A stretch of DNA of 64,000 nucleotides from IMG/VR virus record IMGVR_UViG_3300046787_000438, positions 1 to 64,000 of that record. The stretch is one strand, 5' to 3'. This document shows, piece by piece, positions 34,423 through 56,679 of the stretch. Below the pieces are notes generated by a model. It made no database searches. It worked only from the letters and a program-made list of their open reading frames with translations, and was not told the DNA's origin. The stretch comes from a virus. Both the position numbers and the translations under genes were made by a program. The stretch's first letter is position 1. Every line of letters starts with the position of its first letter.

Positions 34423-34451
34423 TAGTGTCCTTAAATGGCAGAGATCACTAC

Positions 34452-34460
34452 TATTTTACC
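34452..34460 (-). promoter_or_regulatory. GGTAAAATA promoter motif
   Basis: Reverse strand, about 30 nt upstream of the ATG at 34422. Confidence 0.5.
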
Positions 34461-34481
34461 TTAAAACAGAGCAGCCGTTAA

Positions 34482-35462: not shown

Positions 35463-35475
35463 TTAAAATCAGACC

Positions 35476-36819: not shown

Positions 36820-36835
36820 TATATATATTCCTAGG

Positions 36836-37597
36836 TTAAATTTCTAATGCTTTAAGTCTACTAGCCAACTGATCCAATGCTTCGAATATGGTAGTAGGCG
36901 CTGGGCTCCAGTCAGATGACTGGGTGGGAGTGTAGTTAGAGCTCCCAGCAGCTCCAGTCGGGCCAGTAGGGCCGACTTCGCCTGCAATTGTCTCTACCCA
37001 AAAGTTGTCATAGTAAATTAGTAGCTTACCCTCTAGGCTGCTGTACCAAATCATGCCGTCTAGAGCTGGGCTAGGTGCTGAGTCCGAGATTAAAAAGGTT
37101 CCTGCCTGTCCAGTTGCACCCGTAGGACCCGTAGCTCCAGTTGGTCCAATTGGACCTAGATCTCCAGTATTGCCTAGATCGCCCTTAGGCCCTGTAGGCC
37201 CCATATCTCCATCAGTACCATCAAGCCCATCGTCTCCGCGATTGCCTTTGTCGCCTTTTAAACCTTGAGGACCAGTTGCTCCCTGAATACCCTGAGATCC
37301 AATTGGACCTGTCGCTCCGACTGCACCTTGTGGCCCAGTATCTCCAGTAGCTCCTTGCGCTCCAGTAGGTCCAGTAGGGCCAACTACTCCTGTTGGACCA
37401 GTCACACCTTGGATACCTTGAATTCCTCTAGGGCCTACGGGGCCAGTATCGCCTAACCCACCCTGAGGACCAGTTGGACCTATAGATGCTGTAGATGCAA
37501 GTACACCCCAAACGGCACCATCCCATTTCCAGGTTGTTCCTCCAGCTGAGTGAGTGTCATTCACTACTGGATTATTAGGAAAATTAATTGAAGACAT
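36836..37597 (-). CDS. Collagen-like fibre protein
   Basis: G-X-Y stalk of about 135 aa; N-terminal INFP..P module. Confidence 0.9.
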
Positions 37598-40458: not shown

Positions 40459-40832
40459 TACTTAGTTACCTCAGGTCTCACAATAAATTTTCCTTGAATA
40501 ATTCTCGTAGTTTCACTAGTAGGTGATTCAACCTCTAGGTCATATACGTAAGATTTGGGCTCGTATGCAGCCATGTCCGCAGGTGGAATTAGAAGAGTCA
40601 CTGACCCTGCGGATTGATTTACTGTTAAATAGCCGTTTTGAGTAGTGTATTCGGCAACTATAGTGGTCGCTGGATCCCTGTTTTCCACGTCCCACGATCT
40701 GACTTGCATACGAGCCGTATACCCTGTAAGTGCGATAGGCTTACGCGCTGAGTTTTTGATACCAAAAACTTGGTGCACAGTCGACCCCTGGTCAGTGACC
40801 AGGTCGTGCACGTTGCCGCGAAAATAGCTCAT
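40458..40832 (-). CDS. Fibre adaptor-like protein (paralog of 56317-56679)
   Basis: Shared DQGST..GY.ARMQVR..Y.YDLE..QG.F.VR.EVT. Confidence 0.75.
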
Positions 40833-40896: not shown

Positions 40897-41619
40897 TTAG
40901 TAGCCCCCAGTATTGACGCCAGACTTGAGAGGGTGCTCACCCTTGTCGAGCTGGTCCTTCCACTCTGCCTGCATCTCTTTTTGTTGAGCTCGGACGCCCT
41001 CTATTTCAGCTTCCCACTCCGCCATGCGTTCTTCAGTATAGGTAGATTCGGCGTAATCCCAGAAAGCCCCAATGGTATGGCGAGTCCCTGACTCTACGAC
41101 CTTTACTTCATGTACGTTACCAATGCCGCCAGGGAAAGTAATTAGCTGCCCTGTTTTTGGCTTGATAGTGATTGGGTGGTCTCGGTAATTCAAATCTCCA
41201 CCGACATAATCATCATTGATGTAGAGCAGGCATACGAGCTTGCTCTTTTCCCAAGCTGACCAGTTACCTTCCATATCTGTGTTGTCTGAGTGGAAAGGGG
41301 CAAACGCCCCTACTTGCCACTTCTGAGCATGAGATGAGACTGATTTGACTGGACGCTGGTGAGCGTCCTCAACTGCCGCCTTCATCCTGTCTGCAAGCTT
41401 ACCTAGGTAGTCAGTAGGTAGGCCGTACTTCTCTAGCAATGGGTCCTCTGGCATGATGCTCATACCGTATGACTCGAAGAACGCTGACATGCTCCAAGGC
41501 TGCTCGGGATCTTCAAAAAATTCTACGATTTTAGCGCATTCTTCGGAAGAGATGAAGTCCTCATATGAGATGATATCTTCTTTGTAGAGAGTCTTTTCAC
41601 CGAACTCAGTGTTTGTCAT
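40897..41619 (-). CDS. Fe(II)/2OG oxygenase (P4H-like fold, Arg-type)
   Basis: HSD ... Y.GG ... HEV-x-R(H+10). Confidence 0.9.
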   Translation of the reverse strand: MTNTEFGEKTLYKEDIISYEDFISSEECAKIVEFFEDPEQPWSMSAFFESYGMSIMPEDPLLEKYGLPTDYLGKLADRMKAAVEDAHQRPVKSVSSHAQKWQVGAFAPFHSDNTDMEGNWSAWEKSKLVCLLYINDDYVGGDLNYRDHPITIKPKTGQLITFPGGIGNVHEVKVVESGTRHTIGAFWDYAESTYTEERMAEWEAEIEGVRAQQKEMQAEWKDQLDKGEHPLKSGVNTGGY

Positions 41620-42085
41620 CTAAATCTCCTTCATAACCTAGCTCTACTAGGAATCTACTGCTGTCAAATCTTTGATTGTCTTTAGAAAATAGCTTAGCAA
41701 ACTCCATAGCTAAGTAGCGATGAGACTCTCCAGAAATTCTTCCAATTACCGACTTTAAAATCTGGCTCGTTTTATGGTAGTCGTCACGAACAAATGTACA
41801 CTCTCCACCACGTGGACGTCTAAGAACTTTAGTGTGTACCTTACCTGTAGGTTCATATAGTTCAATAGTCAAGAAATCTTTAGCAAATCCCCAGTCCGTG
41901 TAGGCTGCGTACCCATTGGCGGCGTTTATTGCATCACCATAGAAGTAGATAGACCTAGCTGGAGACTCTCCATCTCGGGCAATCGTAAGCATGTATGAGT
42001 CAGCAGTTTTACTTACCACTCGATTTCTATAGTCAGAAACCATGTCAACATGCTCTGTCTTTAATTCGCTCATTTGTCGGTCCAT
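41606..42085 (-). CDS. Hypothetical protein within the oxygenase cluster
   Basis: About 155-159 aa, overlapping both neighbours. Confidence 0.65.
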   Translation of the reverse strand: MDRQMSELKTEHVDMVSDYRNRVVSKTADSYMLTIARDGESPARSIYFYGDAINAANGYAAYTDWGFAKDFLTIELYEPTGKVHTKVLRRPRGGECTFVRDDYHKTSQILKSVIGRISGESHRYLAMEFAKLFSKDNQRFDSSRFLVELGYEGDLDDKH

Positions 42086-42933
42086 AGCTCCATGGTTGTA
42101 TACATACTGTTATCATAGATCTTTGGTCTAATGCCAATTCCAGTGAATTTACGTTGCCCAGCGGTGAAGCCACCCATTACAGAGTGGTACATTCTAAATA
42201 GATCGACTATTAAGATGTCGCCTTCTTCCCATAGCTGGGAATATCTAATCTCTAAATTATCATTTAAGTTAGTTTTTAGTACGTCTAGTAGGACATTTAG
42301 CCTATCTACTTGCTCTTCTGTTGGGGGCTTACCGTCCCAAAGGGCAAGTTCTGGCATTAAATAAGAGCCTCGGTCCGTCTCTACCCTAAGTATCTCTTGC
42401 TGAGTTAGAGGGTGCTTATCTACTACTTTAGTGTAGAAAGGTCCAGTGCCATGTGGTGTAGGTTTATCCCATTTCACTATAGATTTAGAAAGAAACTCTC
42501 TATCCTTATTGCTATATAACGCGTACAATTCAGCAGAATCTACGAATCTAGTAGTCCCCGAGCCAGCAGGTGCTGTAAAAGTTGTCATGTGCCACACTCC
42601 AGCGAGTATCGGGTAGACGTAGTATACCTGCTCTATATGCCAATCTAAAACATACTCTTCAGAGGTCTGATTATAGTCTTTATCTACATTGTCAGAGTGC
42701 CCGCCAGGGTATATAGACGTTTCTATAGTAGAGCGAGGAGCATCCGATGACACATTCCAGCCCATGGAGTTACCTAGAGTCTTTGTTAGCTCGACTTGAT
42801 CCTCGAGCGAGAAGTCTCCGCCCCTAATAACTAAAACGCCATCACGTTTAAATACTGCCTTAAGGGCGTCTACGTCACTAAAAAGATCTTCAACAGATGT
42901 AGCTTCAATTATCTTTATCGATTTTTCTGGCAT
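42070..42933 (-). CDS. TauD/TfdA-family Fe(II)/2OG dioxygenase
   Basis: GVLVIRG, WHIE, G.T.FVD, HP.T, W..GD.LI.D...MYH ... R. Confidence 0.85.
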   Translation of the reverse strand: MPEKSIKIIEATSVEDLFSDVDALKAVFKRDGVLVIRGGDFSLEDQVELTKTLGNSMGWNVSSDAPRSTIETSIYPGGHSDNVDKDYNQTSEEYVLDWHIEQVYYVYPILAGVWHMTTFTAPAGSGTTRFVDSAELYALYSNKDREFLSKSIVKWDKPTPHGTGPFYTKVVDKHPLTQQEILRVETDRGSYLMPELALWDGKPPTEEQVDRLNVLLDVLKTNLNDNLEIRYSQLWEEGDILIVDLFRMYHSVMGGFTAGQRKFTGIGIRPKIYDNSMYTTMELWTDK

Positions 42934-42936
42934 TCT

Positions 42937-43812
42937 CTAAATCTCTTCATCTGGCTCGTAGCGGTCTTTTAGATTACCTGACTCTAAAAGCTGGTAGTAC
43001 TCTTTTAGAGTTACTCTCATTTTCATATATGGCTCCATAATTTTCAAATCATGGCGCTTCCTGCGTGAGATCTCTAGTTCTTCAAACTCGTCGCCGTACT
43101 TCTCCTTAAGCTCATGCCAGTCTGGAGTTCCTTCAAAGTTATACATCCAATAGAGTCTAGTTATATATTTAGGTGCTCCATAAATTCTTTTAACGGCGTG
43201 AAAATAAGGGTATCCTGAAGGAAATATTACTAAATCCCCCGCTTTGGGCTTATATTCAAACTCTCGTACAACTTCCCCGTCCTCGATCACGCGGTATGCA
43301 ATTTCTCCACCCTCGTAGTCGTCATTTGGGTATAAGACACCAGTTATGCCGAATTTATCTCCAGGACTGTCGGCAATCTCTGGCATATAATCAGAGTGAT
43401 AGTTCATGGTTAAATGTTCGTTACCATTTAGATTTTCATCAGGTATGTATCTAGCTAGGCCCCAGGGTTGGCATGACCAGTTGGTAAGCGATATCCCCGT
43501 GTGTTCGATATAAAATTTAGTTGCAAAGTGAAATGCCTTAGCCACCTCTAAAAAGTACTTGTCCGCTCCCTGCTCAGTTTCTGCTTTTTTGGCAACATCC
43601 TCCCACTCCTGTAGCGTCGGGAAGTGTGGGTGTGCTATAAAGGTATGTACTCTGCTATCTATTTGACGACCAAAACCGTACCAACCTCTCCAGTCGCCGT
43701 ATTCTTCATAGTAGTCGATATAGTCGTCAGGGTCGGACAGCACGTTGTGGAATACTATTACATTGTCATCTAGTATCTCGACATTTGGATTGTCTTTAGT
43801 GTAGTCTTCCAT
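42937..43812 (-). CDS. Fe(II)/2OG oxygenase, prolyl 4-hydroxylase-like (Lys-type)
   Basis: HSD, YEGGE, HAVKRIYGAPK. Confidence 0.88.
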   Translation of the reverse strand: MEDYTKDNPNVEILDDNVIVFHNVLSDPDDYIDYYEEYGDWRGWYGFGRQIDSRVHTFIAHPHFPTLQEWEDVAKKAETEQGADKYFLEVAKAFHFATKFYIEHTGISLTNWSCQPWGLARYIPDENLNGNEHLTMNYHSDYMPEIADSPGDKFGITGVLYPNDDYEGGEIAYRVIEDGEVVREFEYKPKAGDLVIFPSGYPYFHAVKRIYGAPKYITRLYWMYNFEGTPDWHELKEKYGDEFEELEISRRKRHDLKIMEPYMKMRVTLKEYYQLLESGNLKDRYEPDEEI

Positions 43813-43822
43813 CTAATCCTCG

Positions 43823-44470
43823 TTAAACTTCCATATCAATAAGACTATTTATCGGCATATGCACATGAGTGATTATTGTCTTACGACCACTAATTAGCGG
43901 TCTAGACTCGTGTAAATAGCCTGAGGGGAACACTACAATACTACCAGCCTTGTTTTTTATAGCTATATCTAGCCCTGGCTGCACGATCCCTAGCTCGCCA
44001 CCCTCGTACTCATCATCTAGGTATACAGCGATAGTTACCGTATCTCTACCTGAAACGACCATGTCACGGTGAGGCCCCATGTCTTTGTACTCGTCATACC
44101 TACGAATTCCATACGTATGGGTACCGAAGATCTCTTTATGTAGATGCTCTAGCTCCGAATCAGCTGCTCCATGTGCTTTTAGGTACGTGGCTGTACAAGC
44201 TTCCATCGAGCCCAGGATTGAGTTTAAAACATACTCTGATTTTTCTTTGATTAGTGGATTAGACTCTCTAATCAAATCTGGATAGCTAAGTGTCTTTAAA
44301 TCTCCGTATGGATTTTCTTTTGAGTCATTATTGGCATACCAGGTCTCCCAGGGGGTTACGGATAAGCTATTAATATCCTCTAGAGTTTCCATGACATTAG
44401 CTATCTCTGGAATAGCTCCTGGAAAGTAATAAACGTTCCTATGAAGAACCTCGACCGTTAGTGCAGACAT
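43823..44470 (-). CDS. Fe(II)/2OG oxygenase, prolyl 4-hydroxylase-like (Lys-type)
   Basis: HRD, YEGGE, HESRPLISGRK. Confidence 0.88.
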   Translation of the reverse strand: MSALTVEVLHRNVYYFPGAIPEIANVMETLEDINSLSVTPWETWYANNDSKENPYGDLKTLSYPDLIRESNPLIKEKSEYVLNSILGSMEACTATYLKAHGAADSELEHLHKEIFGTHTYGIRRYDEYKDMGPHRDMVVSGRDTVTIAVYLDDEYEGGELGIVQPGLDIAIKNKAGSIVVFPSGYLHESRPLISGRKTIITHVHMPINSLIDMEV

Positions 44471-44471
44471 G

Positions 44472-45257
44472 TTAGTCCTCGTCTAGGTACTTAGTTGGTC
44501 CAGCGTTCACGTCATTGTATGCTGAACCAGCATTGAACTTTTTACGAGATTCTGGGTCATTTGCATCAAACTCTGGTTGGAAGATGAATCCAGGGAACAT
44601 GTACTTATCCCCGCTCTTCATTAGGTGTACCTGATGCTTATATGGATGAGTAGACGGGAAGATTAGTGCTTGACCAGCTTTAGGCTTGATCGTGAAGTCT
44701 ACTAGTTCAGAATTCGATTGATCATTGACGTCGTCTGCTGGGCGTAGGTGCCCATTTTTTGGGTTACGTAGGTCATACGGTCTGATGATGAATGACAATT
44801 CTCCACCATCGTAGTCATCATTCACATATACAACAATTGACCATTTAATGCTTAGGTCACCAGCCTGCGCGTCAAAGTGGGCACCCATCGCGCAACCTGG
44901 CCTATACTTCATGATACCAGCGAATGGAGAGATATTAGGCTCTCCCTCTTCTTCATGATCTTTATAGAAAGCATGAGAGATATTCTCAATAGCACCTCTG
45001 ATTTGTCCAACAACCCAGCGGACATCTTCAGCACGCTCTGAGGTGAGCTCGTCTAGCCCCTCGAGGTTAAAGTCTTTCTTGCTGCCGAAGCTGTGCCCGT
45101 CTTGTGTATTAGAAAACCAGAACCCCCACTCAGGGATTACGGACTGGACGGTCTCGTCCTCGTCTAGTTCTTCGATTAGTTGGAGTAGGCGTGCTGGGTC
45201 ATCTAGCACATCACCATATAGATATACGTTCTCGTGTAGTTTTTGTTCTAAGTGCAT
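44472..45257 (-). CDS. Fe(II)/2OG oxygenase, prolyl 4-hydroxylase-like (Lys-type)
   Basis: HFD, YDGGE, HQVHLMKSGDK. Confidence 0.88.
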   Translation of the reverse strand: MHLEQKLHENVYLYGDVLDDPARLLQLIEELDEDETVQSVIPEWGFWFSNTQDGHSFGSKKDFNLEGLDELTSERAEDVRWVVGQIRGAIENISHAFYKDHEEEGEPNISPFAGIMKYRPGCAMGAHFDAQAGDLSIKWSIVVYVNDDYDGGELSFIIRPYDLRNPKNGHLRPADDVNDQSNSELVDFTIKPKAGQALIFPSTHPYKHQVHLMKSGDKYMFPGFIFQPEFDANDPESRKKFNAGSAYNDVNAGPTKYLDED

Positions 45258-45259
45258 TA

Positions 45260-45937
45260 CTAATTACTTCCTAAGTGGTTTTTAATTGTCCAAAAGAACG
45301 GGCATACATATCTAATGCCAGATCTAATCTCGGTTACTCCGTGGATGTAGTGCATATCGCCAGGGAAGAAGTATGCAGCTCCAGCCTTAGGCTTAAACTG
45401 AATCCCCTGGTTAGGGAAGTATAACTCGCCGCCCTCGTAGTCGTCGTTGATATAGAAAAGGCCAGCGATGTCATAGTATGGGAAATCGTTTGGCTTGCCA
45501 CGATTCTCACCCTCATGTAGCTCTTTATCGGCATGTGGCTGCTGACGTTGTCCAGGGAGCCATCTAACAATTGCTGGACTAGTTGCGTGAGCGTCTACAT
45601 TGAAGAACGCGTCTACCTTTTCTTTTAGACGAAGCTGCATACCAACAATAGTTTCTGTAATCCTAGGATCTACGCTATTTAGGGTGGGGGCAGTGGCAAC
45701 CCTATGGTCCCAATAGCCAGAGTCGTAAATGACAGTCCCGTCCTCGTTATAATGAGTCTCGGTCTTATCCCAGGTTTGGTTAGTCTTAGCGAACTCAGTT
45801 AAAATTCTGAGCTCATCCTCGGTCATAAAGTTTTCCAGGGAGACAATGTTATCTCTAGAATCACCAAAAAATCCAGATGGTGTGGTTGACTCATAGGGTC
45901 TATCACTACCATTGGTAACATGCGCTGTCATTGCCAT
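45260..45937 (-). CDS. Fe(II)/2OG oxygenase (Arg-type)
   Basis: HAD, YEGGE, HGVTEIRSGIR. Confidence 0.9.
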   Translation of the reverse strand: MAMTAHVTNGSDRPYESTTPSGFFGDSRDNIVSLENFMTEDELRILTEFAKTNQTWDKTETHYNEDGTVIYDSGYWDHRVATAPTLNSVDPRITETIVGMQLRLKEKVDAFFNVDAHATSPAIVRWLPGQRQQPHADKELHEGENRGKPNDFPYYDIAGLFYINDDYEGGELYFPNQGIQFKPKAGAAYFFPGDMHYIHGVTEIRSGIRYVCPFFWTIKNHLGSN

Positions 45938-45951
45938 ATAGCTATCCTACC

Positions 45952-46692
45952 CTACTCGTACTTACGTCGTTCCCAGACTTCGCGTTGATACACGCCTCCG
46001 TCTGGAACTCTATATTTCATGCTATTTTCTTGATTTTTTGCCATCATTTCCATTGGCCCGAACTTGGTAATCGTTTCTGACTCCCAGTTTTCCCGTTTAA
46101 ATGGGAGTATTTGAGCATATGGAGTACCAGCTGGGATAGTGCCCTTGAATCCCTTAGCAATAAAAAATGGCATAGTGCCAGGTAGATGTACTTTATCGTT
46201 ATCGATAATTCCACTAGTGGTTAGGAATGGTAGTTCGAAGCGGTTAAAAGGCTGAGTGTATAGAGCGCTGTAGCCCTCTGGTAGCTCTACGGCCCAATCA
46301 GCCCACCAAGCAAAGTGCTTCTCGTGGTACCCATATGGGTTATGGAATTGAGGCATCGGCATACGTTCTTGGATAAAATCTTTATTTTTTTCGTCCAAAA
46401 CTTTAACTTGGATCTGCCCCGTGGAGTCCTCGTAGAACTCTATATCGCATGGGGTTTTATACATATACCCGCTGCCCATAATATCGTACACTGCTGGGCA
46501 GGCTTTCCATGTAGGGATCTTTCCGCCGCCATTTGGCATTTCCCATGGCTTGCCAGTCATTGGATTTACGGCAAAACGATCTGCGTCTCTATACCAATCT
46601 GGAATAGTCTTTATTGCAGGCCCTGGCTTAGATGGGCTCTCGTTATTGAGCCACGGTCTATTTAGTATAAATTTAGCCTTCTGAGTGTCCAT
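45952..46692 (-). CDS. Hypothetical protein, DUF6065-related/dUTPase-like beta fold
   Basis: TWKACP..D...GY, SGIIDND, IPAGTP..Q.LPFKRE; shares IPAGTP with its neighbour. Confidence 0.55.
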   Translation of the reverse strand: MDTQKAKFILNRPWLNNESPSKPGPAIKTIPDWYRDADRFAVNPMTGKPWEMPNGGGKIPTWKACPAVYDIMGSGYMYKTPCDIEFYEDSTGQIQVKVLDEKNKDFIQERMPMPQFHNPYGYHEKHFAWWADWAVELPEGYSALYTQPFNRFELPFLTTSGIIDNDKVHLPGTMPFFIAKGFKGTIPAGTPYAQILPFKRENWESETITKFGPMEMMAKNQENSMKYRVPDGGVYQREVWERRKYE

Positions 46693-47440
46693 CTGACTCC
46701 CCCTCCTCTACTTCGTAGGTTTGACCAGTGAATGGACACATTACTGTCTTGAGCTTAATTGATTTTGTTTCGTGGGCTCCCACGGTCTCTCCTCTATAAT
46801 CGACAGCATCTCGGTACATTTTTGACCAGTCGCCTACGCCATTCTTAATTTCTTGGATATCACCATACTTGCGGACTTCCTGCCAGTATTCCTGGGCTGG
46901 GAGGCCATCTAAAATTTCCAGGCTGTAGTCCTGCTGTAGAGCACTCAATGATATCGGTAATACTGCGGCAATTGGTGTCCCCGCTGGGATATGTACTTCT
47001 ACATTAGGCTCGGTGAGCCTCCAGGCTATCGGTAACATGTGCATATAAAAGGAAGTACTCATTAGGGTCGTGTAGCACTGAGTCCCTCTTATGAATTGAT
47101 TAGGGACTGGCATAGCTAACATTGTGGTGTCAGAGTCGGTTATTAGTTTCAATCCAGTAGTGAAACTAATAGTGGCGTTTCCTCTACCAGTATTTAGAAA
47201 CTGATGGCCCTCTAAAATTGTTACATGGTCTGGAGTAGTGTCGGTTATCCCGTCCCATATAAATCTAAGATCCTCGGGAAATGATATCCCCCAGCCTAAC
47301 CTGTTAGTTAGATTAATTGGGAAGCACATATAGGCGTGCTTATCATCGGTGCTATCCATCCAGTCTCGACGAGCTTGGAGCTGCTCTATATTAGCTGTCT
47401 TACCTTCATGGAAAAGCTTTTGAACCTTAATAGTACCCAC
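46673..47440 (-). CDS. DUF6065-like protein
   Basis: RDWMD...HAY.CFP....N..GW motif and IPAGTP. Confidence 0.6.
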   Translation of the reverse strand: MGTIKVQKLFHEGKTANIEQLQARRDWMDSTDDKHAYMCFPINLTNRLGWGISFPEDLRFIWDGITDTTPDHVTILEGHQFLNTGRGNATISFTTGLKLITDSDTTMLAMPVPNQFIRGTQCYTTLMSTSFYMHMLPIAWRLTEPNVEVHIPAGTPIAAVLPISLSALQQDYSLEILDGLPAQEYWQEVRKYGDIQEIKNGVGDWSKMYRDAVDYRGETVGAHETKSIKLKTVMCPFTGQTYEVEEGESDGHSEG

Positions 47441-48222
47441 TATGCGTCTGTATCTTCGTAGAATTCTGGACGATGATACTTTTCAGAGAAATCCAACATG
47501 GTGACCATTGAGTACTTGACACCTGACTTCACTGGCATAGCGCGATGAGGGTACATGAAATTTGATGGGAAGATATATACATCTCCAGCGCGAGCCTTTA
47601 TTTGTGCATTTTGCAATCTAAAAAATAGCTCGCCGCCTTCGTAATCATCGTTAGGGAACGCAACTAGTGATACCACACAGTTATACGAGTATCCATGGTC
47701 GTGGTGCTCCTGGAAATGCTGGCCTTCACCGTATCGGACATAGTTAGTGGCCTCCCAGTAGCGTAGCTCTCCGACATTGTAGTGACGAGTGTAATCCTTA
47801 ACTACCTGAAGCTCTCTATATGTTACATCATCTGCTAGCTTCTTTAGAATCTCCCCCGCTTCAGAATTATCGTGCTCTATGTCGGTCTTCTTATATTTAA
47901 AATCAACACAATCGCGATACTCTGGCATCTTCATTTGATAGCCAACCATAGCTTCACGCCAGTCGTAGTTGTTGGATGGGTCGTCTACGACAGACTCTAG
48001 TCGCTTGATGATATCCATCTCTTTAGGAAGAACGTCCCTATAAACCCAAATGCCGCTACCAGGAATCACTTCCTGAGATGACGACCATGTCTGCTCATCT
48101 AAGGTGTACCACTTAGCTAATCGATTTTGTAGATTTTGCTGCTCTTGCTTACCTTTTTGGTCAATAGCGGCGTCTGCTTTTTGCTTTTCCATTAGCTCTT
48201 CTGGAGTCAAGTCCTGTGCCAT
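47440..48222 (-). CDS. Fe(II)/2OG oxygenase, prolyl 4-hydroxylase-like (Lys-type)
   Basis: HHD, YEGGE, HRAMPVKSGVK. Confidence 0.9.
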   Translation of the reverse strand: MAQDLTPEELMEKQKADAAIDQKGKQEQQNLQNRLAKWYTLDEQTWSSSQEVIPGSGIWVYRDVLPKEMDIIKRLESVVDDPSNNYDWREAMVGYQMKMPEYRDCVDFKYKKTDIEHDNSEAGEILKKLADDVTYRELQVVKDYTRHYNVGELRYWEATNYVRYGEGQHFQEHHDHGYSYNCVVSLVAFPNDDYEGGELFFRLQNAQIKARAGDVYIFPSNFMYPHRAMPVKSGVKYSMVTMLDFSEKYHRPEFYEDTDA

Positions 48223-48230
48223 TTTTATCC

Positions 48231-48962
48231 TTAGTACTTTAGTTTGTAGTCTTCGACAACTTGAGAAACTCTTTGGTTTACACCGTCTCTATCGTGATAG
48301 TCAGTCATTACAACTACGGCATATTTGGTACCCTCTATCATTTCTTTAGAGGCATGTTCATAAATAAATGTAGAGGGGAATATTGCGATATCTCCCTGTT
48401 TCGGCTTTAAGTCTACACCGAATCTAGGGAACCAGAGCTCTCCACCTTCGTAATTATCATTTAGATATATAACGGCAGATATTGTTGCTACATATGTTGG
48501 CCCGTGATCAGCGTGAATTCTAAACTGGGTACCAGCCCCCTCGTACTTTACAAAATTAAACGCTTCGTAAGCTCGGATTCCTACGCCCCAGTAGGCTCCG
48601 TAGTCGTCGACGCACATACGTAACTTCTGAAAAATTTCTTCGTGGAGATCGTAAAGAGCGGAGTTCTCGGGGGTTCTAGGCCCTAAGTTGTTACTCGAAA
48701 CCTTAAAGTCCTGAGCTTTTCTGGCGTAGTTATCCACCTCAGCGGAGTTAGAAACTTTGGCATTGCTCCACTCAAACTGAGTGCTGCCATCTAAATTAGC
48801 CTCTAACTGAGATATGTACCTATCGCAATCGGCTGGTGATATAGCGTTTCTATAGACGTTTATACCCAGCGCTGGGTTGAGGACTGACATGTGCCCTAGT
48901 TGGCGGTCTGCCATTCTAGAGGATGCAGTCTCTGATCTATCTTTAGTGAACCATATATTCAT
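48231..48962 (-). CDS. Fe(II)/2OG oxygenase, prolyl 4-hydroxylase-like (Lys-type)
   Basis: HAD, YEGGE, HASKEMIEGTK. Confidence 0.9.
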   Translation of the reverse strand: MNIWFTKDRSETASSRMADRQLGHMSVLNPALGINVYRNAISPADCDRYISQLEANLDGSTQFEWSNAKVSNSAEVDNYARKAQDFKVSSNNLGPRTPENSALYDLHEEIFQKLRMCVDDYGAYWGVGIRAYEAFNFVKYEGAGTQFRIHADHGPTYVATISAVIYLNDNYEGGELWFPRFGVDLKPKQGDIAIFPSTFIYEHASKEMIEGTKYAVVVMTDYHDRDGVNQRVSQVVEDYKLKY

Positions 48963-48983: not shown

Positions 48984-49016
48984 AAAAAGAAAAGCGGCTA
49001 GATTTCTCTAGCCGCT
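48984..49016 (-). terminator. Rho-independent terminator after the PPFF/FN3 gene
   Basis: AGCGGCTAGA-GAAA-TCTAGCCGCT followed by TTTCTTTTT on the - strand. Confidence 0.85.
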
Positions 49017-49031
49017 ATCTCTTTTTGGAGA

Positions 49032-49925
49032 CTACTTATCGTCGTCTTCCTTCAACTCTTCCCATGATTCCCATGGGATTGAGTAAGCGAAGTAAGGAGG
49101 GAAGAAAGGAGGGAAGAATGGTGGGAAGAACGGGAAGAAAGGAGGGAAGAATGGTGGGAAGAACGGTGGGAAGAAAGGAGGGAAGAACGGGAAGAAAGGA
49201 GGGAAGAATGGTGGGAAGAACGGGAAGAAAGGAGGGAAGAAGGGAGGGAAGAACGGGAAGAAAGGAGGGAAGAATGGAGGGAAGAACGGTGGGAAGAATG
49301 GTGGGAGCGTAGTTACGTTGCCTGACAGATCTGATGCAGCGGAATTACCGTTAGCATTAGTTGCAATAACGCTGTACTGCTGCGCTGTATTCATTTCCTG
49401 CGGGACAGTTATTGATGTAACAGTTGAAGCAACTGTATTTCCCTTAGCATCTGTTGATGCCCAGGTGTAGCTAGAAATAGCTTTTCCACCGTCATTTGGT
49501 GCTGTCCAAGAGACAGAGTCTTGGTCTGGCACTGTTGATGATGCTGTAGGAGCTGCGGGCTTTGCTGGAACTGTTGTTACAGTTCTAGCTGGTGCGGCCG
49601 TGCCTGGTGAGGTACCAGCCGCATTAGATAGTTTGACAGTAGCAGTGACTGAAGAATTGCTGGCTAGCCCTGTGACTGTAGCTGTATATGTACCGCTAGC
49701 TGGTGTGGGAAGGGCCCCACTACCTATGGTCGTACCAGCCGCATTACTTACTATATAGTTAGTGGGTGCAGGGGATAGAGCATTAATTGTCCAGGTAATT
49801 GTAAGTGCACCGTCATTGAAGGCACGGTCAGTGCCTACATCAGTTGCAGTTACATTTTCTGGGGCCATAGGCTCCAGGAAGTCATTTTGAGCAGCGGAAC
49901 GGCCGCCAGCCTCTTTCTTTGCCAT
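49032..49925 (-). CDS. Two-FN3-domain protein with a C-terminal poly(PPFF) tract and acidic tail
   Basis: FN3 motifs (AP.NVTA..ITW; VSWTAPNDGG..I.SY..YSV.ATN.NG.S); 72-aa PPFF tract. Confidence 0.88.
   Translation of the reverse strand: MAKKEAGGRSAAQNDFLEPMAPENVTATDVGTDRAFNDGALTITWTINALSPAPTNYIVSNAAGTTIGSGALPTPASGTYTATVTGLASNSSVTATVKLSNAAGTSPGTAAPARTVTTVPAKPAAPTASSTVPDQDSVSWTAPNDGGKAISSYTWASTDAKGNTVASTVTSITVPQEMNTAQQYSVIATNANGNSAASDLSGNVTTLPPFFPPFFPPFFPPFFPFFPPFFPPFFPFFPPFFPPFFPFFPPFFPPFFPPFFPPFFPFFPPFFPPFFPPYFAYSIPWESWEELKEDDDK
49089..49304 (-). repeat. Coding (PPFF/PFF)n repeat, 19 units
   Basis: 15 four-residue plus 4 three-residue units; synonymous codon variation. Confidence 0.95.
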
Positions 49926-49943
49926 TTCTTATCTCCCTAAGTA

Positions 49944-52424
49944 CTAAGCAGTCAGGTCGCCGTAGACGATCCAGGTGTTAGCAGCTCTCTTTAATAGTGT
50001 AGCAGATGACCAGCGGGTGCGTAGTTTCAGTCCAGGGGTTGCGTTAACGGTAACTCCGTCAGCTCCAGCAATAGTCACTTGGCCAGTATTTGTCTGAATA
50101 ATGTCGATGCTAGTACCGACTGGGTAGGCTACAGATGAATCTAGAGGGATCGTGATAGTTGTTGCTGATGTATTTGACACCTCGATGATATCATCACGTA
50201 GCCCTAAGTTATCTAGGGTATAGCTAGCGGTCTTATAGATGAAACTAGAGATTGAAGGAACGCCAGCTGAACTCTGCTGAGTTCCGTCATTGAAGGCTAC
50301 AAACCCAGTAGAAACCCCTGCGTTGGCTATAACATTTTGAGCTTCGATGCTTGCAAAAGAGAAAGATGCATCAGCTGTGTCAATGTAAAGTGACTCGTCT
50401 GGCTCTGGAACATAATTGTCAAAGAACTTAAATCGGCCATCAGTAGCATCTCGGAACATGCCAGTGTGTGCATAGGTACCGCTAGCATAACGTCCAGCGG
50501 CCCAACCTAGGTCTGGATCGGTACTAACTCTAGCTCTAGCAGCTCCACCAGTGAGGTAGGTGTCAGTTACTGTACTTGCTACAGTAAATGTATTCGCTGT
50601 CACCTCTAAAATCTGTGCGCCAGGTGCTGCTATATCAAATGAGCTAGGAGAGGAATCCGTTATGACAACATAGTGTCCAGCAGCATACCCGTGGTTTGCA
50701 ATAGTCTCGTATACAACGTAGGTACCGTCCCCTATAGCACTATTAATTCCGTTTAGGCCAGGGTTATTCAGGTAAATCATGTTGTCTTGTACAGCAAGAT
50801 TTGCTGTGTTAACGGTGGTTGTTGTACCTACAACATATAGATCACCAGTGATAGTGACATTTGTTGCCTCTACATCTCCAGTAAAAATTGCACCATCTAG
50901 ATTTGCCTTGGCATCTAGTGCACCCTGGGTAGCTATAGATACTGGCTTGTCAGCATCTGAAGTGTTGTCAACATCACCAAGGCCGACCATTGACTTTGTG
51001 ATACCAGAGGTTGTACCAGTAAAGGTAGCATTTGCAGTAGGTGCTTTAGCGTCAATCTGGGTCTGAATAGCTGAAGTAACACCATTCAAATAGCCGATCT
51101 CTACGTTAGAGGTGTCACCAATTGAAGTAGTTGATGGTAGCACTACGGTACCAGTGAATGTCGGTGCAGCTAATGGTGCATAAGTAGTTGCTGCAGTAGC
51201 AGATGCAAGTTTTGCATCTAACTGAGTCTGGATAGCTCCAGTAACCCCATTTACGTAGCTGAGCTCGGTCCCAGATACGTCACCAATTGAAGTAGTTGAT
51301 GGTAGCACTACGGTACCAGTGAAGCTAGGACCTTCTAATTGAGCATAAGCTTCTAGGTCCGAGGCAATAACCAGAGTGCTAGTATCTGCAATGCCGTGAA
51401 CATTGGTGGTATCATCTGAGTGCGCTGCCAAGATAGATGTAGTAACTAGATCTGCAGTATTGGCAATACCGTGAACATTGGTGGTGTCAACGTTGTGGGT
51501 ATTAATTGCTGAATTCAAGTCAGCTGTCACCACTAGGTCAGCAACGCTAGCGATACCGTGGACTCCAGAAGTTAGAGCTTCGTGACTACTTAGTGTATTT
51601 GCAACGTCTGAAGCTGCGTCTAAGGCACCAGCAATATCAGTCTGATATGCCAAGTTTGCAGTATTAGAGATACCATGAACGTTTGTATCCAAGTTCTCGT
51701 GGTCGTTCATTAGGTTGTCAGCATATGATTTACCAACAAAATCCAAGCTGTTATAGTGTGTAACCCCGTCACCAACACGCACAAAACCAGCGTGGTCGCT
51801 TTCGATGTATAAAGTATTTGCGGCAGTTACTACGTTTGCAGTTGCAAAATTAGCAGCAGTGTCGATTACAAAGTTAATTTTGCCACCAAGCGAAGTAGCC
51901 ATAGTGGTTGCAAAATTAGGGTCATCAGAAAGAGCTGCTGCAAGCTCATTTAGAGTATTTAAGGTTCCTGGGGACGAATCTATTAGATTAGCAACAGCGG
52001 TATCAGTGTATGAAGCGGCATTAGCCTGAGCCGCATTTGCCTTGTTCTGAGCACCAGTCTGAGTTTCTAGAGCTGCAGTGTCTGCAATTCCATGTACATT
52101 TGTAGCGTCATCTATATGAGCGTCCAATGTTGATAGCCCAGCTGTGACAGTATTGCCGAAGTTAGCGTCGCCACCGATAGACGCAGCTAGCTCGGCTAGG
52201 GTGTCCAAAGTCTCTGGGGCAAGACCCACTACATCAGCAAGCGCATTGTCTACATATGACTGGCTAATTGCGCTATATGCAAGTGCACCCCAGTTATCAG
52301 TAGCATTACCAATCTTAAATGCACCAGTATCTGACTCATAACCTAATTCACCAGCTGCTAGTACTGGATTGGCGCTTGCCCATTCTGCAGCGGTGCCGCG
52401 TCTGAACTGAATTCTAATTGCCAT
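49944..52424 (-). CDS. Fibre protein with an Mtd_N/hyaluronidase-type N-terminal domain
   Basis: IQFRRGTAAEW..ANPVL..GE.G.E.DTG.FKIG; APETLDTL.ELA and NVHGI repeats. Confidence 0.85.
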   Translation of the reverse strand: MAIRIQFRRGTAAEWASANPVLAAGELGYESDTGAFKIGNATDNWGALAYSAISQSYVDNALADVVGLAPETLDTLAELAASIGGDANFGNTVTAGLSTLDAHIDDATNVHGIADTAALETQTGAQNKANAAQANAASYTDTAVANLIDSSPGTLNTLNELAAALSDDPNFATTMATSLGGKINFVIDTAANFATANVVTAANTLYIESDHAGFVRVGDGVTHYNSLDFVGKSYADNLMNDHENLDTNVHGISNTANLAYQTDIAGALDAASDVANTLSSHEALTSGVHGIASVADLVVTADLNSAINTHNVDTTNVHGIANTADLVTTSILAAHSDDTTNVHGIADTSTLVIASDLEAYAQLEGPSFTGTVVLPSTTSIGDVSGTELSYVNGVTGAIQTQLDAKLASATAATTYAPLAAPTFTGTVVLPSTTSIGDTSNVEIGYLNGVTSAIQTQIDAKAPTANATFTGTTSGITKSMVGLGDVDNTSDADKPVSIATQGALDAKANLDGAIFTGDVEATNVTITGDLYVVGTTTTVNTANLAVQDNMIYLNNPGLNGINSAIGDGTYVVYETIANHGYAAGHYVVITDSSPSSFDIAAPGAQILEVTANTFTVASTVTDTYLTGGAARARVSTDPDLGWAAGRYASGTYAHTGMFRDATDGRFKFFDNYVPEPDESLYIDTADASFSFASIEAQNVIANAGVSTGFVAFNDGTQQSSAGVPSISSFIYKTASYTLDNLGLRDDIIEVSNTSATTITIPLDSSVAYPVGTSIDIIQTNTGQVTIAGADGVTVNATPGLKLRTRWSSATLLKRAANTWIVYGDLTA

Positions 52425-52445
52425 CTGTCTTATTCCTTATATACT

Positions 52446-52673
52446 CTAGAAGCTGGAGGGGTTTCCGCCGTCGTAATTGATGTTGTACGAGCTAGCCGCA
52501 TTCCCACCATCGACGTTTGTGATGTCTGAAGCTGTCATAGAAACCCATGCTGACCCATCGTAGGTATACATAGCTCCTAAGTCAGATCTAAAGAAAAGGT
52601 CACCAGAAGATGCCTGAACTGGATACTCTGTTCCGTTAACGATGTTAATCGGGGAGAGAAACTTCTTTGCCAT
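52446..52673 (-). CDS. Small fibre-linker protein
   Basis: MAKKFL N-terminus, GDLFF..Y.YDG..W, C-terminal DGG motifs; RBS AAGGAAAAGG. Confidence 0.7.
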   Translation of the reverse strand: MAKKFLSPINIVNGTEYPVQASSGDLFFRSDLGAMYTYDGSAWVSMTASDITNVDGGNAASSYNINYDGGNPSSF

Positions 52674-52703
52674 TTAAGTGACCTTTTCCTTAGTCTGTCT
52701 AAA

Positions 52704-52712
52704 TATTTTACT
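52704..52712 (-). promoter_or_regulatory. AGTAAAATA promoter-motif variant
   Basis: About 31 nt upstream of the ATG at 52673. Confidence 0.4.
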
Positions 52713-52713
52713 A

Positions 52714-55113
52714 TTAACCGATTACTACTACACGGTAGCTGTCTGCTGAAACAGTAGACGAAGCAATCCATGAGATAGTCACCGCGTTGGTGCTTGTCAC
52801 CATTACATCAGCCTCTACTAGCGAGTTATCGGCTAGATCGCGGATCTGAACGGTTACATCAAGAGTACCAATACCGTGAGTCACGGTCCAGGTGACAACA
52901 CCAGCCGACGGGGTCAAGCTTGAGTTATTCTCTGAGTACTTAGTAGTTGCAGCAAGGTTAGCGCGTGCACCAGCAGCAGTTGTTGCTCCAGTACCACCGT
53001 TAGCAATTGCTACGGTTCCGTTCACATTGTCAGCATTTCCAGAAATGTCACCAGAGATGTCTTCACCAGGAATAGATGCTACAGATGTAAGGAATCCACC
53101 TTCACCTCCACCAACTAGGTATGAACCTGAGGTGAAGAAGGTGTTTCCAGTACCACCGTGTGATACAGGGATGGTAGAGCCATTCCAGACACCAGTTGTG
53201 ATGGTTCCAACAGTATCGATCGAGGTCTGACCAGCATAGTCAGAAGCAATCGAGATACCGTTTACATCAACAGTAATTCCAGATCCAGCGTCAGCCGAGA
53301 TTGAAGTACCAGAGATATTTACACCACTACCTGCAGTGTACTGACCAGCTGCAGAGAACTGAGTCCAGGTAGCGCCAGACATCCCCGAGTAGGCCGTTAC
53401 AATGTATCCGCGGGCCTGGTTGGTTCCTAGCTCAACGAATACAAAGTCGCCAACTTCAGGAGTTTGCTGATCGTCAGCTGCAATGAGCATTGACATGGCA
53501 GGCCCAGCCGCTGAGTCGTATACGTAGATTCCGTTATACAGACCCATGCCGCCAGCTTGGTTCTTAACAAGAACGCGGTCGCCATCTTGCAGTGTTATTC
53601 CGTCAATAGCACTATCGCGGAATGGAGCACTTAGAGAGCTAGTTGTAGCTACCTTTACAGAATCTTTAACATTCAGACCCTGTGAGGCGGCCGAGATCTC
53701 GCCACGAAGAGTAGAGAGAACTACGTCATCTGCAGCATTGAAGTCGGAGGTTAGGCTGGTCTCGAGTGCATCTAGGCCAGAGGTTAGGTCAGAAGCTACG
53801 TTGCTGATGTCAGTGGTTAGACCAGAAGCTACAGTGTTTGTGTAGTCCTTCGAGGTCTGAATCGCATTGCTGATGTCAGTTCCAAGGCCGCTAACAGAGC
53901 TAGTAACGGTGTTAGATAGGTCTGAAATGTCTCCAGCTAGACCCTGATCTGCAAGTTCGAAAGCTGAAGTTACGTTAGTACCAATAGCATTTGCGTAGTT
54001 CTTGTATGCAGTCTCAGTTGCTGAGGACGCGCTTGAAACCGCTGAGTCAGTGTAGTCATTTGCATTAGATTCAGCAGTTGCAGCTGAGCCAGAAGCGTCA
54101 TACCACGAGTCAGTAGCATTTCGATCGATTTCTACCTCATTGGTAGAGCCAATCTTAAGGCCATTTCCAGTATCGACGTTCAGTACGCTGTTAGTTACGG
54201 TCAGACCGTCGCCAGATGAGGTAGCAAAGATACCTGCTACAGCGTTGTCGATATCGCTCTGTAGTCCAGTAGCTACACCATCAACGTATGAGACGGCATT
54301 GCTGTAAGCAACTCCTGCAGCATCGGCGATATCGGTAGATAGGCCAGAGGCTACGGTGTTTGTGTAGTCCTTTGCATCCGACAAAGCCGAGGCAGCTGCG
54401 CCTGATGCATCGTAAGTCCCTGAGGTAACCGAGATGGTGTCAGAATCAATTGTGATTCCTGTACCTGCAGTTAGAGTATTCTGCTTGCCAGAGATCATGG
54501 CGGCAATGTCAGTTGCATAGTTCGGGTTATCTGCAAGTGCAGCAGCGAGCTCATTTAGAGTGTTCAGAAGTGCAGGTGCACCATCAACTAGGTTAGCTAC
54601 CGCAGTGTCGGTGTAGTCATTGGCATCTGAAAGAGCAGAGGCAGCAGCACCAGCAGCATCGTAGTTAGATGCTAGGCCATCTGCGTAGCTCTTAGCGTTA
54701 TTTTCTGCAGTTGTTGCAGCACCAGCAGCATCGTAGTTAGATGCTAGGCCATCTGCGTAGCTCTTAGCGTTATTTTCTGCAGTTGTTGCAGCACCAGCAG
54801 CATCGTAGTTAGATGCTAGGCCATCTGCATAAGCTTCTGCATTTGCCTGAGCAGTTGAGGCAGATCCAATTGCATCGTAAGTATTAGCTAGATCAAGTGC
54901 AGTGATTGCAGCATTGATTGCTTCGGTAACATTACCGCCCGCAGCAAGGGCAACCCAGGACGTACCGTCATAGTATTTTAGAGCTGAATCTACGGTGTTG
55001 TAGTAGATCTGACCTACAACAGGCGAAGAGGGAGCTGTTGCAAGGTTTTGAATCCTTGCATTCTGAAGCTCGTTTTTATTGAGGTTCAGGTTCGTTAAGA
55101 ACTGCTTTGCCAT
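52714..55113 (-). CDS. Fibre protein (coiled-coil/beta repeats)
   Basis: MAKQFL N-terminus, YDAAGAA repeats, [21 protein letters not shown]; C-terminal TH.IG domain. Confidence 0.85.
54644..54828. repeat. Perfect 72-bp tandem repeat (about 2.6 copies)
   Basis: Unit encodes [24 protein letters not shown]; copies start at 54644, 54716 and 54788. Confidence 0.9.
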
Positions 55114-55123
55114 TTGTTATTCC

Positions 55124-55498
55124 TTAGGAGAGGTATGCGGTGCCAGAAATGGCAACCGAGAAGGTGATTGTTAGGTTATTTGTGTCTTGGTGCTCGATAG
55201 CTCCCTCTACAACATCGCCAGAACTCATAAAGATCGTGACAGCGGGGTAGAAGCCTAGGTTGTGTTCAATTGTCCAGACGGTACTATCTGCACCCTGTAC
55301 GTGAGAGTACGACACTAGAGGAATGAGCGCCTCTGAATCTACCCCTGTGTATGGAAGAGTGTTCCATGTATTGGTACCAGTACCGATTTTCATCTTATTG
55401 GTATCAATTTCAACGCCAAGTTCTCCCTTGGCAAGAGTCGGGTTAGCTGCGGTCCAGTTGGCCGCGGTGTCATTTCGTAGTTGTATTTGAACTGCCAT
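55124..55498 (-). CDS. Mtd_N-domain fibre-linker protein
   Basis: IQLRNDTAANW...NP.L..GE.G.E.DT.K.KIG plus a C-terminal WTI.HNLG domain. Confidence 0.8.
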   Translation of the reverse strand: MAVQIQLRNDTAANWTAANPTLAKGELGVEIDTNKMKIGTGTNTWNTLPYTGVDSEALIPLVSYSHVQGADSTVWTIEHNLGFYPAVTIFMSSGDVVEGAIEHQDTNNLTITFSVAISGTAYLS

Positions 55499-55519
55499 AA
55501 TTACGCCTTAAGTTTATTG

Positions 55520-56317
55520 CTAGAATTCGCTAGCTGACCCACCATTAATTGTACCTGAAATGCTAGAGGCTGAGATTCCTATCTCTAGCGTTGATTTGTT
55601 TATCCACTTAGAAATTTCAGGATCATATATAAGAACCTGACCGTTGCCTAGATCGGTAAGTTGTACGTCTGTAAGCTCTGTCATTGCTACGTCTTGTACT
55701 GCTTCGGGGTCTACCCATTCGGTAGCATAATTTGCCGAGCCAGTCTTTCTTAGTATCTGACCAGCAGTACCTCCAGTCGGAACTCCTGGGCCTGCTGCAC
55801 CAGTAGGACCAGTGGCACCTGGTATACCCGCATCTCCAATAGGAGAGACCATGAAAACAAGGTTGTCGTTATAGGTCCAAGATCTAGCTGTACCATCTAT
55901 GTAAGCAAGATCTAAAGTTCTCCAACCAGAAGACATTGACTGCTCTAAAACGTAGTATCTAGAGAACTTTCTAGTATTCACTGCATCTTGAATAGTTATA
56001 ACTGCCTTATAGCTGTTCGTCGATGTGATAGCAGCATCTAGTAATCCCGATTGACTATCAGTCTGACTGTCAGTCTCTGATATATAAAGAGCTGTAGCCG
56101 AGAAAATACTGGAAGCGTTGAAAGCAAGATGCCCAGCGCCTGGGTTAGCTGAGGCATAAGTATTTAAGAACTTGTACGGTGCAGACAGACCTCCCGAGAC
56201 TCCAGCATCGCCCTTGTCACCCTTAGGACCCGCGGCACCTTGAGGGCCAGACGCCGCTACTGTAACTTGACGGGCATGCTTACCTGCTGTAACGGAGCTA
56301 ACTGTGTATCCAGCCAT
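55520..56317 (-). CDS. Fibre base protein with short collagen segments
   Basis: Short G-X-Y runs, PTGGTAGQIL.K motif (shared with 37597), LTDV, C-terminal INGG. Confidence 0.75.
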   Translation of the reverse strand: MAGYTVSSVTAGKHARQVTVAASGPQGAAGPKGDKGDAGVSGGLSAPYKFLNTYASANPGAGHLAFNASSIFSATALYISETDSQTDSQSGLLDAAITSTNSYKAVITIQDAVNTRKFSRYYVLEQSMSSGWRTLDLAYIDGTARSWTYNDNLVFMVSPIGDAGIPGATGPTGAAGPGVPTGGTAGQILRKTGSANYATEWVDPEAVQDVAMTELTDVQLTDLGNGQVLIYDPEISKWINKSTLEIGISASSISGTINGGSASEF

Positions 56318-56679
56318 TATCTGGTCACCTCTGATCTAACTGCAAAGTTGCCTTGTAAAATTTTGTATACGAATAAATCTGCAGATGGCGCGACTAGCTC
56401 TAAATCGTATAAATATATTCCTTCAGAGATTGAACCCATAGTTACATCATCTACAAATAGCGCGATACTGCCATCAGTTGTCCCCAGTTCGATACCGCCA
56501 TTTTCAGTCGTAAGCTCTAGAATCAGAGACTCTCCAGAGTTATTCGACCTAACCTGCATGCGAGCTTTATATCCAGTGAATGCTATAGGCTTTTTGGCTG
56601 GATCTTTGTAGTAGATGATGCGCGAAAGTGTCGAGCCTTGATCGGCTACGATATTGTACAGTGCTGCTGGGGCGCTCAA
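56317..56679 (-). CDS. Fibre adaptor-like protein (paralog of 40458-40832)
   Basis: DQGST..GY.ARMQVR..Y.YDLE..QG.F.VR.EVT. Confidence 0.75.
   Translation of the reverse strand: MSAPAALYNIVADQGSTLSRIIYYKDPAKKPIAFTGYKARMQVRSNNSGESLILELTTENGGIELGTTDGSIALFVDDVTMGSISEGIYLYDLELVAPSADLFVYKILQGNFAVRSEVTR

Follow-up and report, generated by a model that had tools for sequence, protein, structure and literature searches.

The window analysed here is the 64,000-nucleotide (nt) stretch that forms the first 64 kb of IMG/VR virus record IMGVR_UViG_3300046787_000438, a record of 152,411 bp with direct terminal repeats. Between positions 49,032 and 56,679, the window carries seven co-directional genes on the minus strand, named p120, p265, p124, p799, p75, p826, and p297. 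We consider it moderately probable that these genes encode a collar-anchored side fibre assembled in gene order from the N-terminal to the C-terminal end, its segments joined by no fewer than four types of junction and p124 and p75 serving as adaptors. Sequence comparison supports this interpretation in part; all the comparative tests favour it. The original prediction held that six or seven of these proteins are linked into one long appendage; the comparative tests are all in favour of such linkage, and we infer direct contact at the junctions, a trimeric state, and a single linear chain. The features that take part are as follows.

56317-56679, minus strand: p120, putative immunoglobulin (Ig)-like collar or anchor protein, the first gene of the operon (fold and phrog matches).
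55520-56317, minus strand: p265, proximal segment, with an N-terminal anchor strand (residues 1-30), short collagen-like stretches, two GQxL..W hairpin motifs, and a GG tail.
55523-55549, minus strand: GG tail of p265 (..GTINGGSASEF), 42 nt before the next start.
55124-55498, minus strand: p124, with the N-terminus MAVQIQLRNDTAANW and a C-terminal domain containing WTIEHNLG.
55340-55498, minus strand: Mtd_N domain of p124 (residues 1-53; Pfam PF18454, 56.7 bits, E = 2.2e-15).
55127-55330, minus strand: HNLG type-1 β-sandwich of p124 (ends ..ISGTAYLS), with a predicted local distance difference test score (pLDDT) of 90 in the AlphaFold2 (AF2) model.
52714-55113, minus strand: p799, long middle fibre segment (phrog_8309, 30390, and 2647).
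54925-55113, minus strand: MAK-1 N-terminal module of p799 (starts MAKQFL; sequence homology).
52717-52941, minus strand: HNLG type-2 domain of p799 (WTVTHGIG; local hidden Markov model matches).
52446-52673, minus strand: p75 mini-adaptor (starts MAKKFL, ends NVDGGNAASSYNINYDGGNPSSF), consisting of a MAK-2 module (residues 1-53) and a double DGG tail (residues 54-75).
49944-52424, minus strand: p826, distal segment, which starts MAIRIQFRRGTAAEW and ends in the C826 tip-type domain (..WSSATLLKRAANTWIVYGDLTA).
52266-52424, minus strand: Mtd_N domain of p826 (residues 1-53; Pfam PF18454, 51.8 bits, E = 7.6e-14).
49032-49925, minus strand: p297, last gene, with a basic N-terminus, two FN3-like domains, and a PPFF repeat (about 49077-49310; Pfam fn3, E = 7.7e-6).

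In the proposed assembly, p120 would form the virion collar or anchor and hold the N-terminal strand of p265, and the fibre would grow outward in gene order, each C-terminal module docking the N-terminal module of the next protein. Mtd_N of p124 would receive the GG tail of p265. The HNLG-1 domain of p124 would engage the MAK-1 module that starts p799, and HNLG-2 of p799 would in turn engage MAK-2 of p75. The double DGG tail of p75 would fit into the Mtd_N domain of p826, whose own C826 end would pair with the basic N-terminus of p297. The two small proteins p124 and p75 would thereby convert one connector type into the other.

The eight motifs named in the original prediction are all present where it had placed them, on seven minus-strand open reading frames (ORFs) as it had described, and a whole-genome motif search found none of them elsewhere in the 152-kb genome. 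Within the window, the chance of consistent pairing, given two C-end types, two N-start types, and four junctions, is about 1/6 to 1/3. The pairing in the window is thus explicable by chance, and its significance rests on other genomes. There, the adjacency of the motif pairs, which had been proposed as a check, is conserved far beyond the relatives of this virus; the relatives found via p799 and p120 retain the gene order even at high divergence.

To examine the GG-tail/Mtd_N junction, Mtd_N genes were drawn from IMG/VR by a degenerate DNA pattern, and 115 of the 120 have a co-directional ORF ending at most 100 nt upstream. The motif [DN]GG is found in the last 10 residues of this upstream ORF in 59/115 cases (47/89 after dereplication), and a looser GG-like motif in 87/115, against 15/1396 (strict) and 70/1396 (loose) for background ORFs in the same loci (Fisher p = 3e-59 for the strict motif). 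The usual form of the tail is double, ..DGGxPxSxY(4-8)[IV]DGG[TGS][PA], and p75 has this form. The upstream partners range from 53 to 838 amino acids (aa) and are unrelated in their N-terminal parts; therefore, it is the junction itself that is conserved.

The possible contribution of translation signals to the GG tail should be noted, since a Shine-Dalgarno GGAGG for the next gene, lying inside the upstream frame, could leave such a tail as a by-product. In the 59 positive pairs, the last GG codons end at most 13 nt before the start in 33, mostly at 8 nt, and GGAGG is read in 24. However, among tightly coupled pairs the tail occurs in only 9/824 without Mtd_N downstream and in 36/65 with it, it is still present in 22/49 pairs with gaps of more than 15 nt, and the DGG motif recurs 12-17 residues nearer the N-terminus. 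The GG codons of the window are about 40 nt from the next start and the genes have their own TAAGGA sites; the p265 tail, at 42 nt, is therefore not a Shine-Dalgarno site. The by-product explanation is hardly credible, and the coupled-pair and long-gap counts refute it as the sole cause of the tail. In the tightly coupled pairs (loci L118-L237; L numbers denote fetched loci), the GG tail probably doubles as a Shine-Dalgarno site, judging from the nucleotide sequence (24/59).

For the HNLG/MAK junction, MAK-1 genes were drawn by the LNKNELQN pattern, and an ORF ending in HNLG-1 lies 6-18 nt before the MAK-1 gene in 110/113 cases (57/59 clusters). Two sub-types can be distinguished at this junction. 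Type 1 HNLG (..F.G.AYL[SN]) precedes MA+xF[LV]T.[IL]NLNKNELQN, and type 2 (..Y[RK]VV[IV].G), which ends the MAK-1 proteins (81 sampled), mostly precedes M[AS][KR]xF[LK].P-type starts; therefore, p799 need not bind to or polymerise with itself. The HNLG domains of p124 and p799 are strongly diverged, with no BLAST link between them, and remote homology links the N-terminal module of p799 to that of p75 (28% identity, E = 1e-4). The MAK-1 module of p799 is 45.7% identical to the N-terminus of a fibre protein of Streptococcus pyogenes prophage Javan515, and p799 also contains a fibre motif common to the fibre chains of 9d93 and 6v8i. The position of p75 is kept in all relatives with the next gene, at sizes of 75-76, 83-84, or 132-133 aa. 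The C-terminal region of p265, which ends ..SGTINGGSASEF, shares homology with the central part of the 132-133-aa adaptors in L010 and L040.

Dereplicated neighbouring gene pairs over all fetched loci were counted as follows.

HNLG then MAK: 145 pairs.
HNLG then Mtd_N: 0 pairs.
GG tail then Mtd_N: 85 pairs.
GG tail then MAK: 0 pairs.
C826 then FN3P: 33 pairs.

The pairing is strict and widespread. As a control for ascertainment bias, the test of each pair was restricted to loci selected through the other motif. In these control loci, HNLG is followed by MAK for 18/22 HNLG ends and 18/21 MAK starts (p = 3e-41), and the GG tail by Mtd_N for 17/26 GG tails and 17/30 Mtd_N starts (p = 1e-30). Further conserved junctions are those between p120 and the N-terminal strand and between C826 and the basic N-terminus; p297-type proteins follow C826-type ends in 33/51 dereplicated pairs, and the C826 domain also ends many stand-alone Mtd_N fibres. 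Of the claim that two reusable connector pairs operate in the cluster, both pairings are thus borne out with zero cross-pairs, but HNLG/MAK comprises two sub-types, there are further junction types, and GG tails also precede FPxxP-type N-termini. Read in this way, the connector code appears richer and less absolute than two pairs.

Another type of junction was observed in eight loci (L119, L144, L147, L171, L213, L216, L219, and L234), where ..VTVVGTLLK or ..VKVHKTLIEA is followed by a protein of ~150 aa starting MATVNKDFKVKNGL. These ~150-aa proteins end ..FDGGxxxDNFN and precede Mtd_N fibres starting MATRMQQRRGT.

Split and fused forms of the same proteins provide a second line of evidence. 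Many relatives have, after p120, one 96-105-aa protein composed of the N-terminal strand and an HNLG domain. The 105-aa protein of L010, a form carried by L010 and L037-L042, matches p265 residues 1-40 (53% identity, E = 6e-10), and its residues 32-105 match p124 residues 51-124 (49% identity, E = 8e-24); therefore, the protein was split in the window lineage. The split into p265 and p124 falls exactly at the GG-tail/Mtd_N junction, and the block apparently inserted there comprises a collagen-like stretch, hairpins, the GG tail, a stop, a ribosome site, and Mtd_N. Unless the GG tail binds Mtd_N, the p265 anchor and the p124 HNLG domain would no longer belong to one assembly. We regard this split as the strongest single argument that the junction is a joint. 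Whether the motif pairs occur fused in a single ORF elsewhere was a check proposed with the original prediction, and the 105-aa protein, which joins the p265 N-terminus to the p124 HNLG domain, is one such form. In a second split case, the 953-aa collagen protein of a paralogous fibre cluster in the window (see below) carries a tail that L085 and L087 encode on a separate protein of 84-88 aa.

The Mtd_N domain is N-terminal in 120 of the 124 sampled matches and in all 12 longer homologues read (12 of 101), so that none of these 12 is a fused form of GG tail and Mtd_N. In gp36 of Gordonia phage Orchid (L116; annotated 117 aa), Mtd_N begins at residue 35, after a Gly/Ser-rich ..SSGGSSGGSG... From its sequence, this protein could have arisen by natural fusion of a GG-type tail to Mtd_N, or its start codon could be mis-set.

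Several observations weigh against the proposed assembly. GG tails are absent upstream of Mtd_N in syn9, GMA6, Sukkupi, and ReqiPepy6 (which has five tandem Mtd_N enzymes), and about a quarter of the sampled Mtd_N genes have no GG-like tail upstream; therefore, Mtd_N can dock elsewhere. The GG tails that precede FPxxP-type N-termini count on the same side. The MAK..HNLG-2 protein is the last fibre gene in many phages, and therefore HNLG-2 can be a free end. The sampled families of each junction are all homologous, so shared descent inflates the counts. A search among longer, fused relatives of p75 found no p75-p826 fusion, which is weak evidence. Fold searches with HNLG gave only matches at noise level (Z 4.5-6.5), and in PDB searches no solved structure had a GG tail bound to Mtd_N or HNLG bound to a MAK module; nor did sequence searches of the PDB yield a solved relative of the HNLG or MAK module.

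The shortest module of this kind (L070, L095, L102-L104, L240, L244, and others) consists of a p120-like protein, a 96-aa protein with the N-terminal strand and HNLG, and a MAK..HNLG-2 protein, in this order. It is followed by a conserved 617-629-aa protein starting MGL[RFIL]DR[IFL]A...

Some of these observations would also fit proteins that act singly as fibres or knobs and attach to the virion separately, each through its own N-terminal domain, with the pairing reflecting inherited gene order and recombination at gene borders. Mtd_N would be a general anchor where no GG tail lies upstream (ReqiPepy6, syn9, GMA6), and module exchange among fibre genes is known. However, a 75-aa protein lacking a binding domain is implausible as a fibre of its own, cross-pairs are zero, and the upstream partners are unrelated except for their last module. 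The conservation across phages of Actinobacteria, Proteobacteria, and Firmicutes is at the protein level. The p265/p124 split, moreover, joins the anchor and HNLG only if the junction binds. We regard independent anchoring as distinctly unlikely.

The small size of many GG-tail partners (median 154 aa) and the translational coupling of many of them to the Mtd_N gene (overlaps of -1, -4, or -8 nt) could instead point to assembly chaperones: p75, p124, and their kin would aid N-terminal trimerisation of the next protein and then leave. Known fibre chaperones, however, sit downstream of the client. Large structural proteins, too, have GG tails at their ends (PblB, 658 aa; others, 534-838 aa), and p75 and p124 are themselves made of the fibre modules MAK, Mtd_N, and HNLG. 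This role is quite improbable, and we retain p75 and p124 as candidate structural adaptors.

The domain nature of the connectors was evaluated with profiles and models. At the Pfam gathering cut-off for Mtd_N (PF18454, 26.3 bits), the genome has two matches, p124 and p826 (residues 5-42 and 5-40, respectively), both at the extreme N-terminus. The AF2 model of p124 (pLDDT 90) consists of Mtd_N and a β-sandwich, the HNLG domain, and its Mtd_N superposes on the N-domain of HylP (2c3f) with Z 6.8 and a root-mean-square deviation of 1.2 over 46 residues. The G-x-y runs of p265 are short (residues 23-42 and about 160-180), and the protein scores 15.3 bits against the collagen family PF01391, below the cut-off of 27.2.

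In comparisons of the HNLG domain with docking domains by VIA-align, Z is 5.3 (7rfv), 4.8 (3u6x), and 4.5 (5e7t), values inside the stated noise range of the tool. These likenesses, to CBA120 TSP4 (Z 5.3) and to the BppU C-terminal domains of TP901-1 and Tuc2009 (Z 4.5-4.8), bear on a branched appendage, in which the connectors are real but build several shorter fibres on one stem, as in CBA120 or Klebsiella phages, the three domains of an HNLG trimer or the collar holding separate partners. An internal second Mtd_N-like repeat in p826 would suit such an arrangement, as would the presence of a second p120 paralogue that has a separate fibre cluster. On the other side, the Z scores are at noise level, the junctions are one-to-one in gene order, and no C-terminal module in the pair table stands before two cognate N-termini. 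Branching is thus unlikely, and a single chain is preferred.

Junctions of the same kind are found in cultured phages of Arthrobacter, Gordonia, Microbacterium, Dinoroseobacter, and Streptococcus, as listed below in gene order; megablast of the region against cultured phages gave zero matches.

S. pyogenes phage 315.3: PblB (658 aa), ..MILDGGS, then HylP.
Arthrobacter phage Ingrid: gp20, ..IIDGGTP, then gp21 (Mtd_N).
Arthrobacter phage Judy: gp30 (70 aa), ..FDGGSAA, then gp31 (Mtd_N).
Gordonia phage TZGordon: gp28, ..DFDGGEL, then gp29 (Mtd_N).
Microbacterium phage Lyell: gp44, ..LDGGTP, then gp45 (Mtd_N).
Dinoroseobacter phage R5C and S. pyogenes prophage Javan515: a protein ending ..HNLG, then a MAK..HNLG protein.

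The R5C module lies directly after the portal gene, which makes an attachment site at the neck possible. In Javan515 (L107), a p120-like+HNLG protein, a MAK..HNLG protein, and a 73-aa 'hyaluronoglucosaminidase' fragment follow the lysis genes and adjoin the speA toxin gene. The first of these proteins (200 aa) seems to be a p120-like domain (a weak match, E = 0.005) fused to an HNLG domain.

At the proximal end, p120 has an Ig-superfamily fold in the size class of p132 (about 120-140 residues). The best PDB folds found by Foldseek for its AF2 model (pLDDT 91) are tail-tip chains of T5 and DT57C, 137-140 aa in length, with template modelling scores of 0.72-0.75 and E = 4e-7 to 1e-6 against 7qg9_L/J and 8hqz_Q/T; in 7qg9, the 140-aa chain bears the name 'L-shaped tail fiber protein p132'. 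The p120 protein matches phrog_1084 and also phrog_3304, 'L-shaped tail fiber protein assembly' (E = 1.4e-5). Likeness of the p120 family profile to the sequence of p132 (7qg9_R) is marginal (E = 0.34). A clear sequence homologue is chain M of PDB 26dk, a 197-aa 'Structural protein' (E = 1e-15 with the family profile), which has an insertion between residues about 39 and 106; this entry is newer than the fold library. A p120 paralogue (39% identity) is located at 40458-40832.

At the distal end, p297 could be either a tip protein or an assembly factor. In the relatives L005, L011, and L024, its PPFF tail is swapped for NY/F-rich (..YNFYNYSNYFF..), Cys-rich (..CFCGYCWRCNVCC..), or other aromatic tails; these relatives retain the basic N-terminus and the FN3 part. 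The plus-strand ORF at 49025-49312 is a mirror image of the p297 PPFF repeat. A p297 paralogue is present at 34482-35462.

The seven genes are predicted to form one operon, given a ribosome site for each gene and a single terminator at the end. Spacers within the unit are -1 to 40 nt, the p120 stop overlaps the p265 start, and every gene from p124 onward has its own TAAGGA-type site. Fusion of adjacent ORFs by read-through or frameshift is unlikely because the gaps are 10-40 nt and the ribosome sites and stop codons are separate and different, respectively. The unit is closed by the following feature.

48993-49016, both strands: bidirectional terminator-like hairpin with a 10-bp stem and T-runs on each strand.

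The hairpin divides the operon from a minus-strand run of ~10 proteins of roughly 160-290 aa (40897-48962), which lies between two fibre clusters. The second, paralogous fibre cluster (29770-40832, minus strand) contains the p120 paralogue, the p297-type paralogue, and collagen-like proteins of 953, 253, 447, and 1550 aa. The 953-aa protein ends ..TIDGGTP, and the next N-terminus is of the FPxxP type, not Mtd_N. A siphovirus-like tail module occupies 2-11 kb of the window, with the tape measure at 2098-5157.

In hundreds of other phages, too, such end modules are matched by the starting module of the next gene. It is conceivable, though we hold it only tentatively, that the C-terminal modules (the DGG tail, the two HNLG sub-types, C826, and others) and the N-terminal modules following them constitute an orthogonal docking code of general use among tailed phages of Actinobacteria, Proteobacteria, Firmicutes, and Cyanobacteria, in which mini-adaptors of 60-160 aa convert connector types. 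With such a code, gene order could tell how the proteins of a multi-protein fibre are ordered and perhaps how they branch, and the build order of a fibre may thus be readable from sequence. No part of an uncultured phage genome is harder to interpret than its fibre and receptor-binding genes; fibre architecture would become legible, and the small 'hypothetical' genes beside fibre genes could be understood as adaptors. The code would also give modular host-recognition evolution a concrete mechanism, whole segments being swapped between conserved joints.

The cluster can be compared with several known systems. In T5, a p132 dodecamer forms the collar that carries three side fibres, and ~50 N-terminal residues of pb1 intertwine with p132 (PMC10038345). 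Similarly, p120 has the p132 fold and is encoded directly before a fibre protein with a conserved N-terminal strand, which by analogy it would hold. The two systems differ in that the fibre is divided over six proteins in the window, whereas T5 has one pb1, and in that sequence likeness to p132 is marginal. The authors of the T5 study described p132/p140 as a landmark of T5-like phages only (PMC10038345); the present case would extend the p132 collar idea beyond them.

HylP and Bordetella Mtd have the same N-terminal Mtd_N as p124 and p826, and the hylP gene of 315.3 is preceded by the same junction, but these proteins are single enzymatic or lectin tips. Our literature search found no description of their docking partner or of a role for the GG tail, and no paper on DGG-tail/Mtd_N or HNLG/MAK junctions, which is weak evidence of novelty. 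In CBA120 TSP1-4 and lactococcal BppU-BppL, too, conserved N-terminal pieces dock on dedicated domains and the binding modules are swappable; those systems are branched hubs, in contrast to a serial chain with mini-adaptors, and the HNLG likeness to them is at noise level (Z 4.5-5.3).

In principle the arrangement is that of the T4 long tail fibre, whose genes 34-35-36-37 lie in physical order and in which gp36, a trimer, attaches to gp37 at the N-terminal region of the latter (PMC3004832). As in T4, the genes stand side by side, and separately made proteins would be joined end to end. The differences are the junction types (at least four), the mini-adaptors of 75 and 124 aa, and the siphovirus-like setting of the window. 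The Pfam gp36, Gp34_trimer, Gp34_2nd, and gp37 Collar families (including Phage_T4_gp36) match none of the seven window proteins and do match those of T4 itself, and T4 gp36 has no DGG tail. Residues 6-38 of T4 gp37, on the other hand, resemble the Mtd_N profile (hhalign probability 87%, E = 3.6e-6 pairwise; BLASTP E = 2e-5), with no Pfam match at E <= 1, and some DGGTF tails in IMG/VR are followed by gp37-like N-termini. This suggests a single older device behind both the gp36-gp37 joint of T4 and the docking of the HylP and Mtd tips. By analogy, the cluster would work like the T4 fibre and the collar-anchored fibre of T5, with different parts; the principle of end-to-end joining is known from the T4 long tail fibre, and the window cluster is a variant on it.

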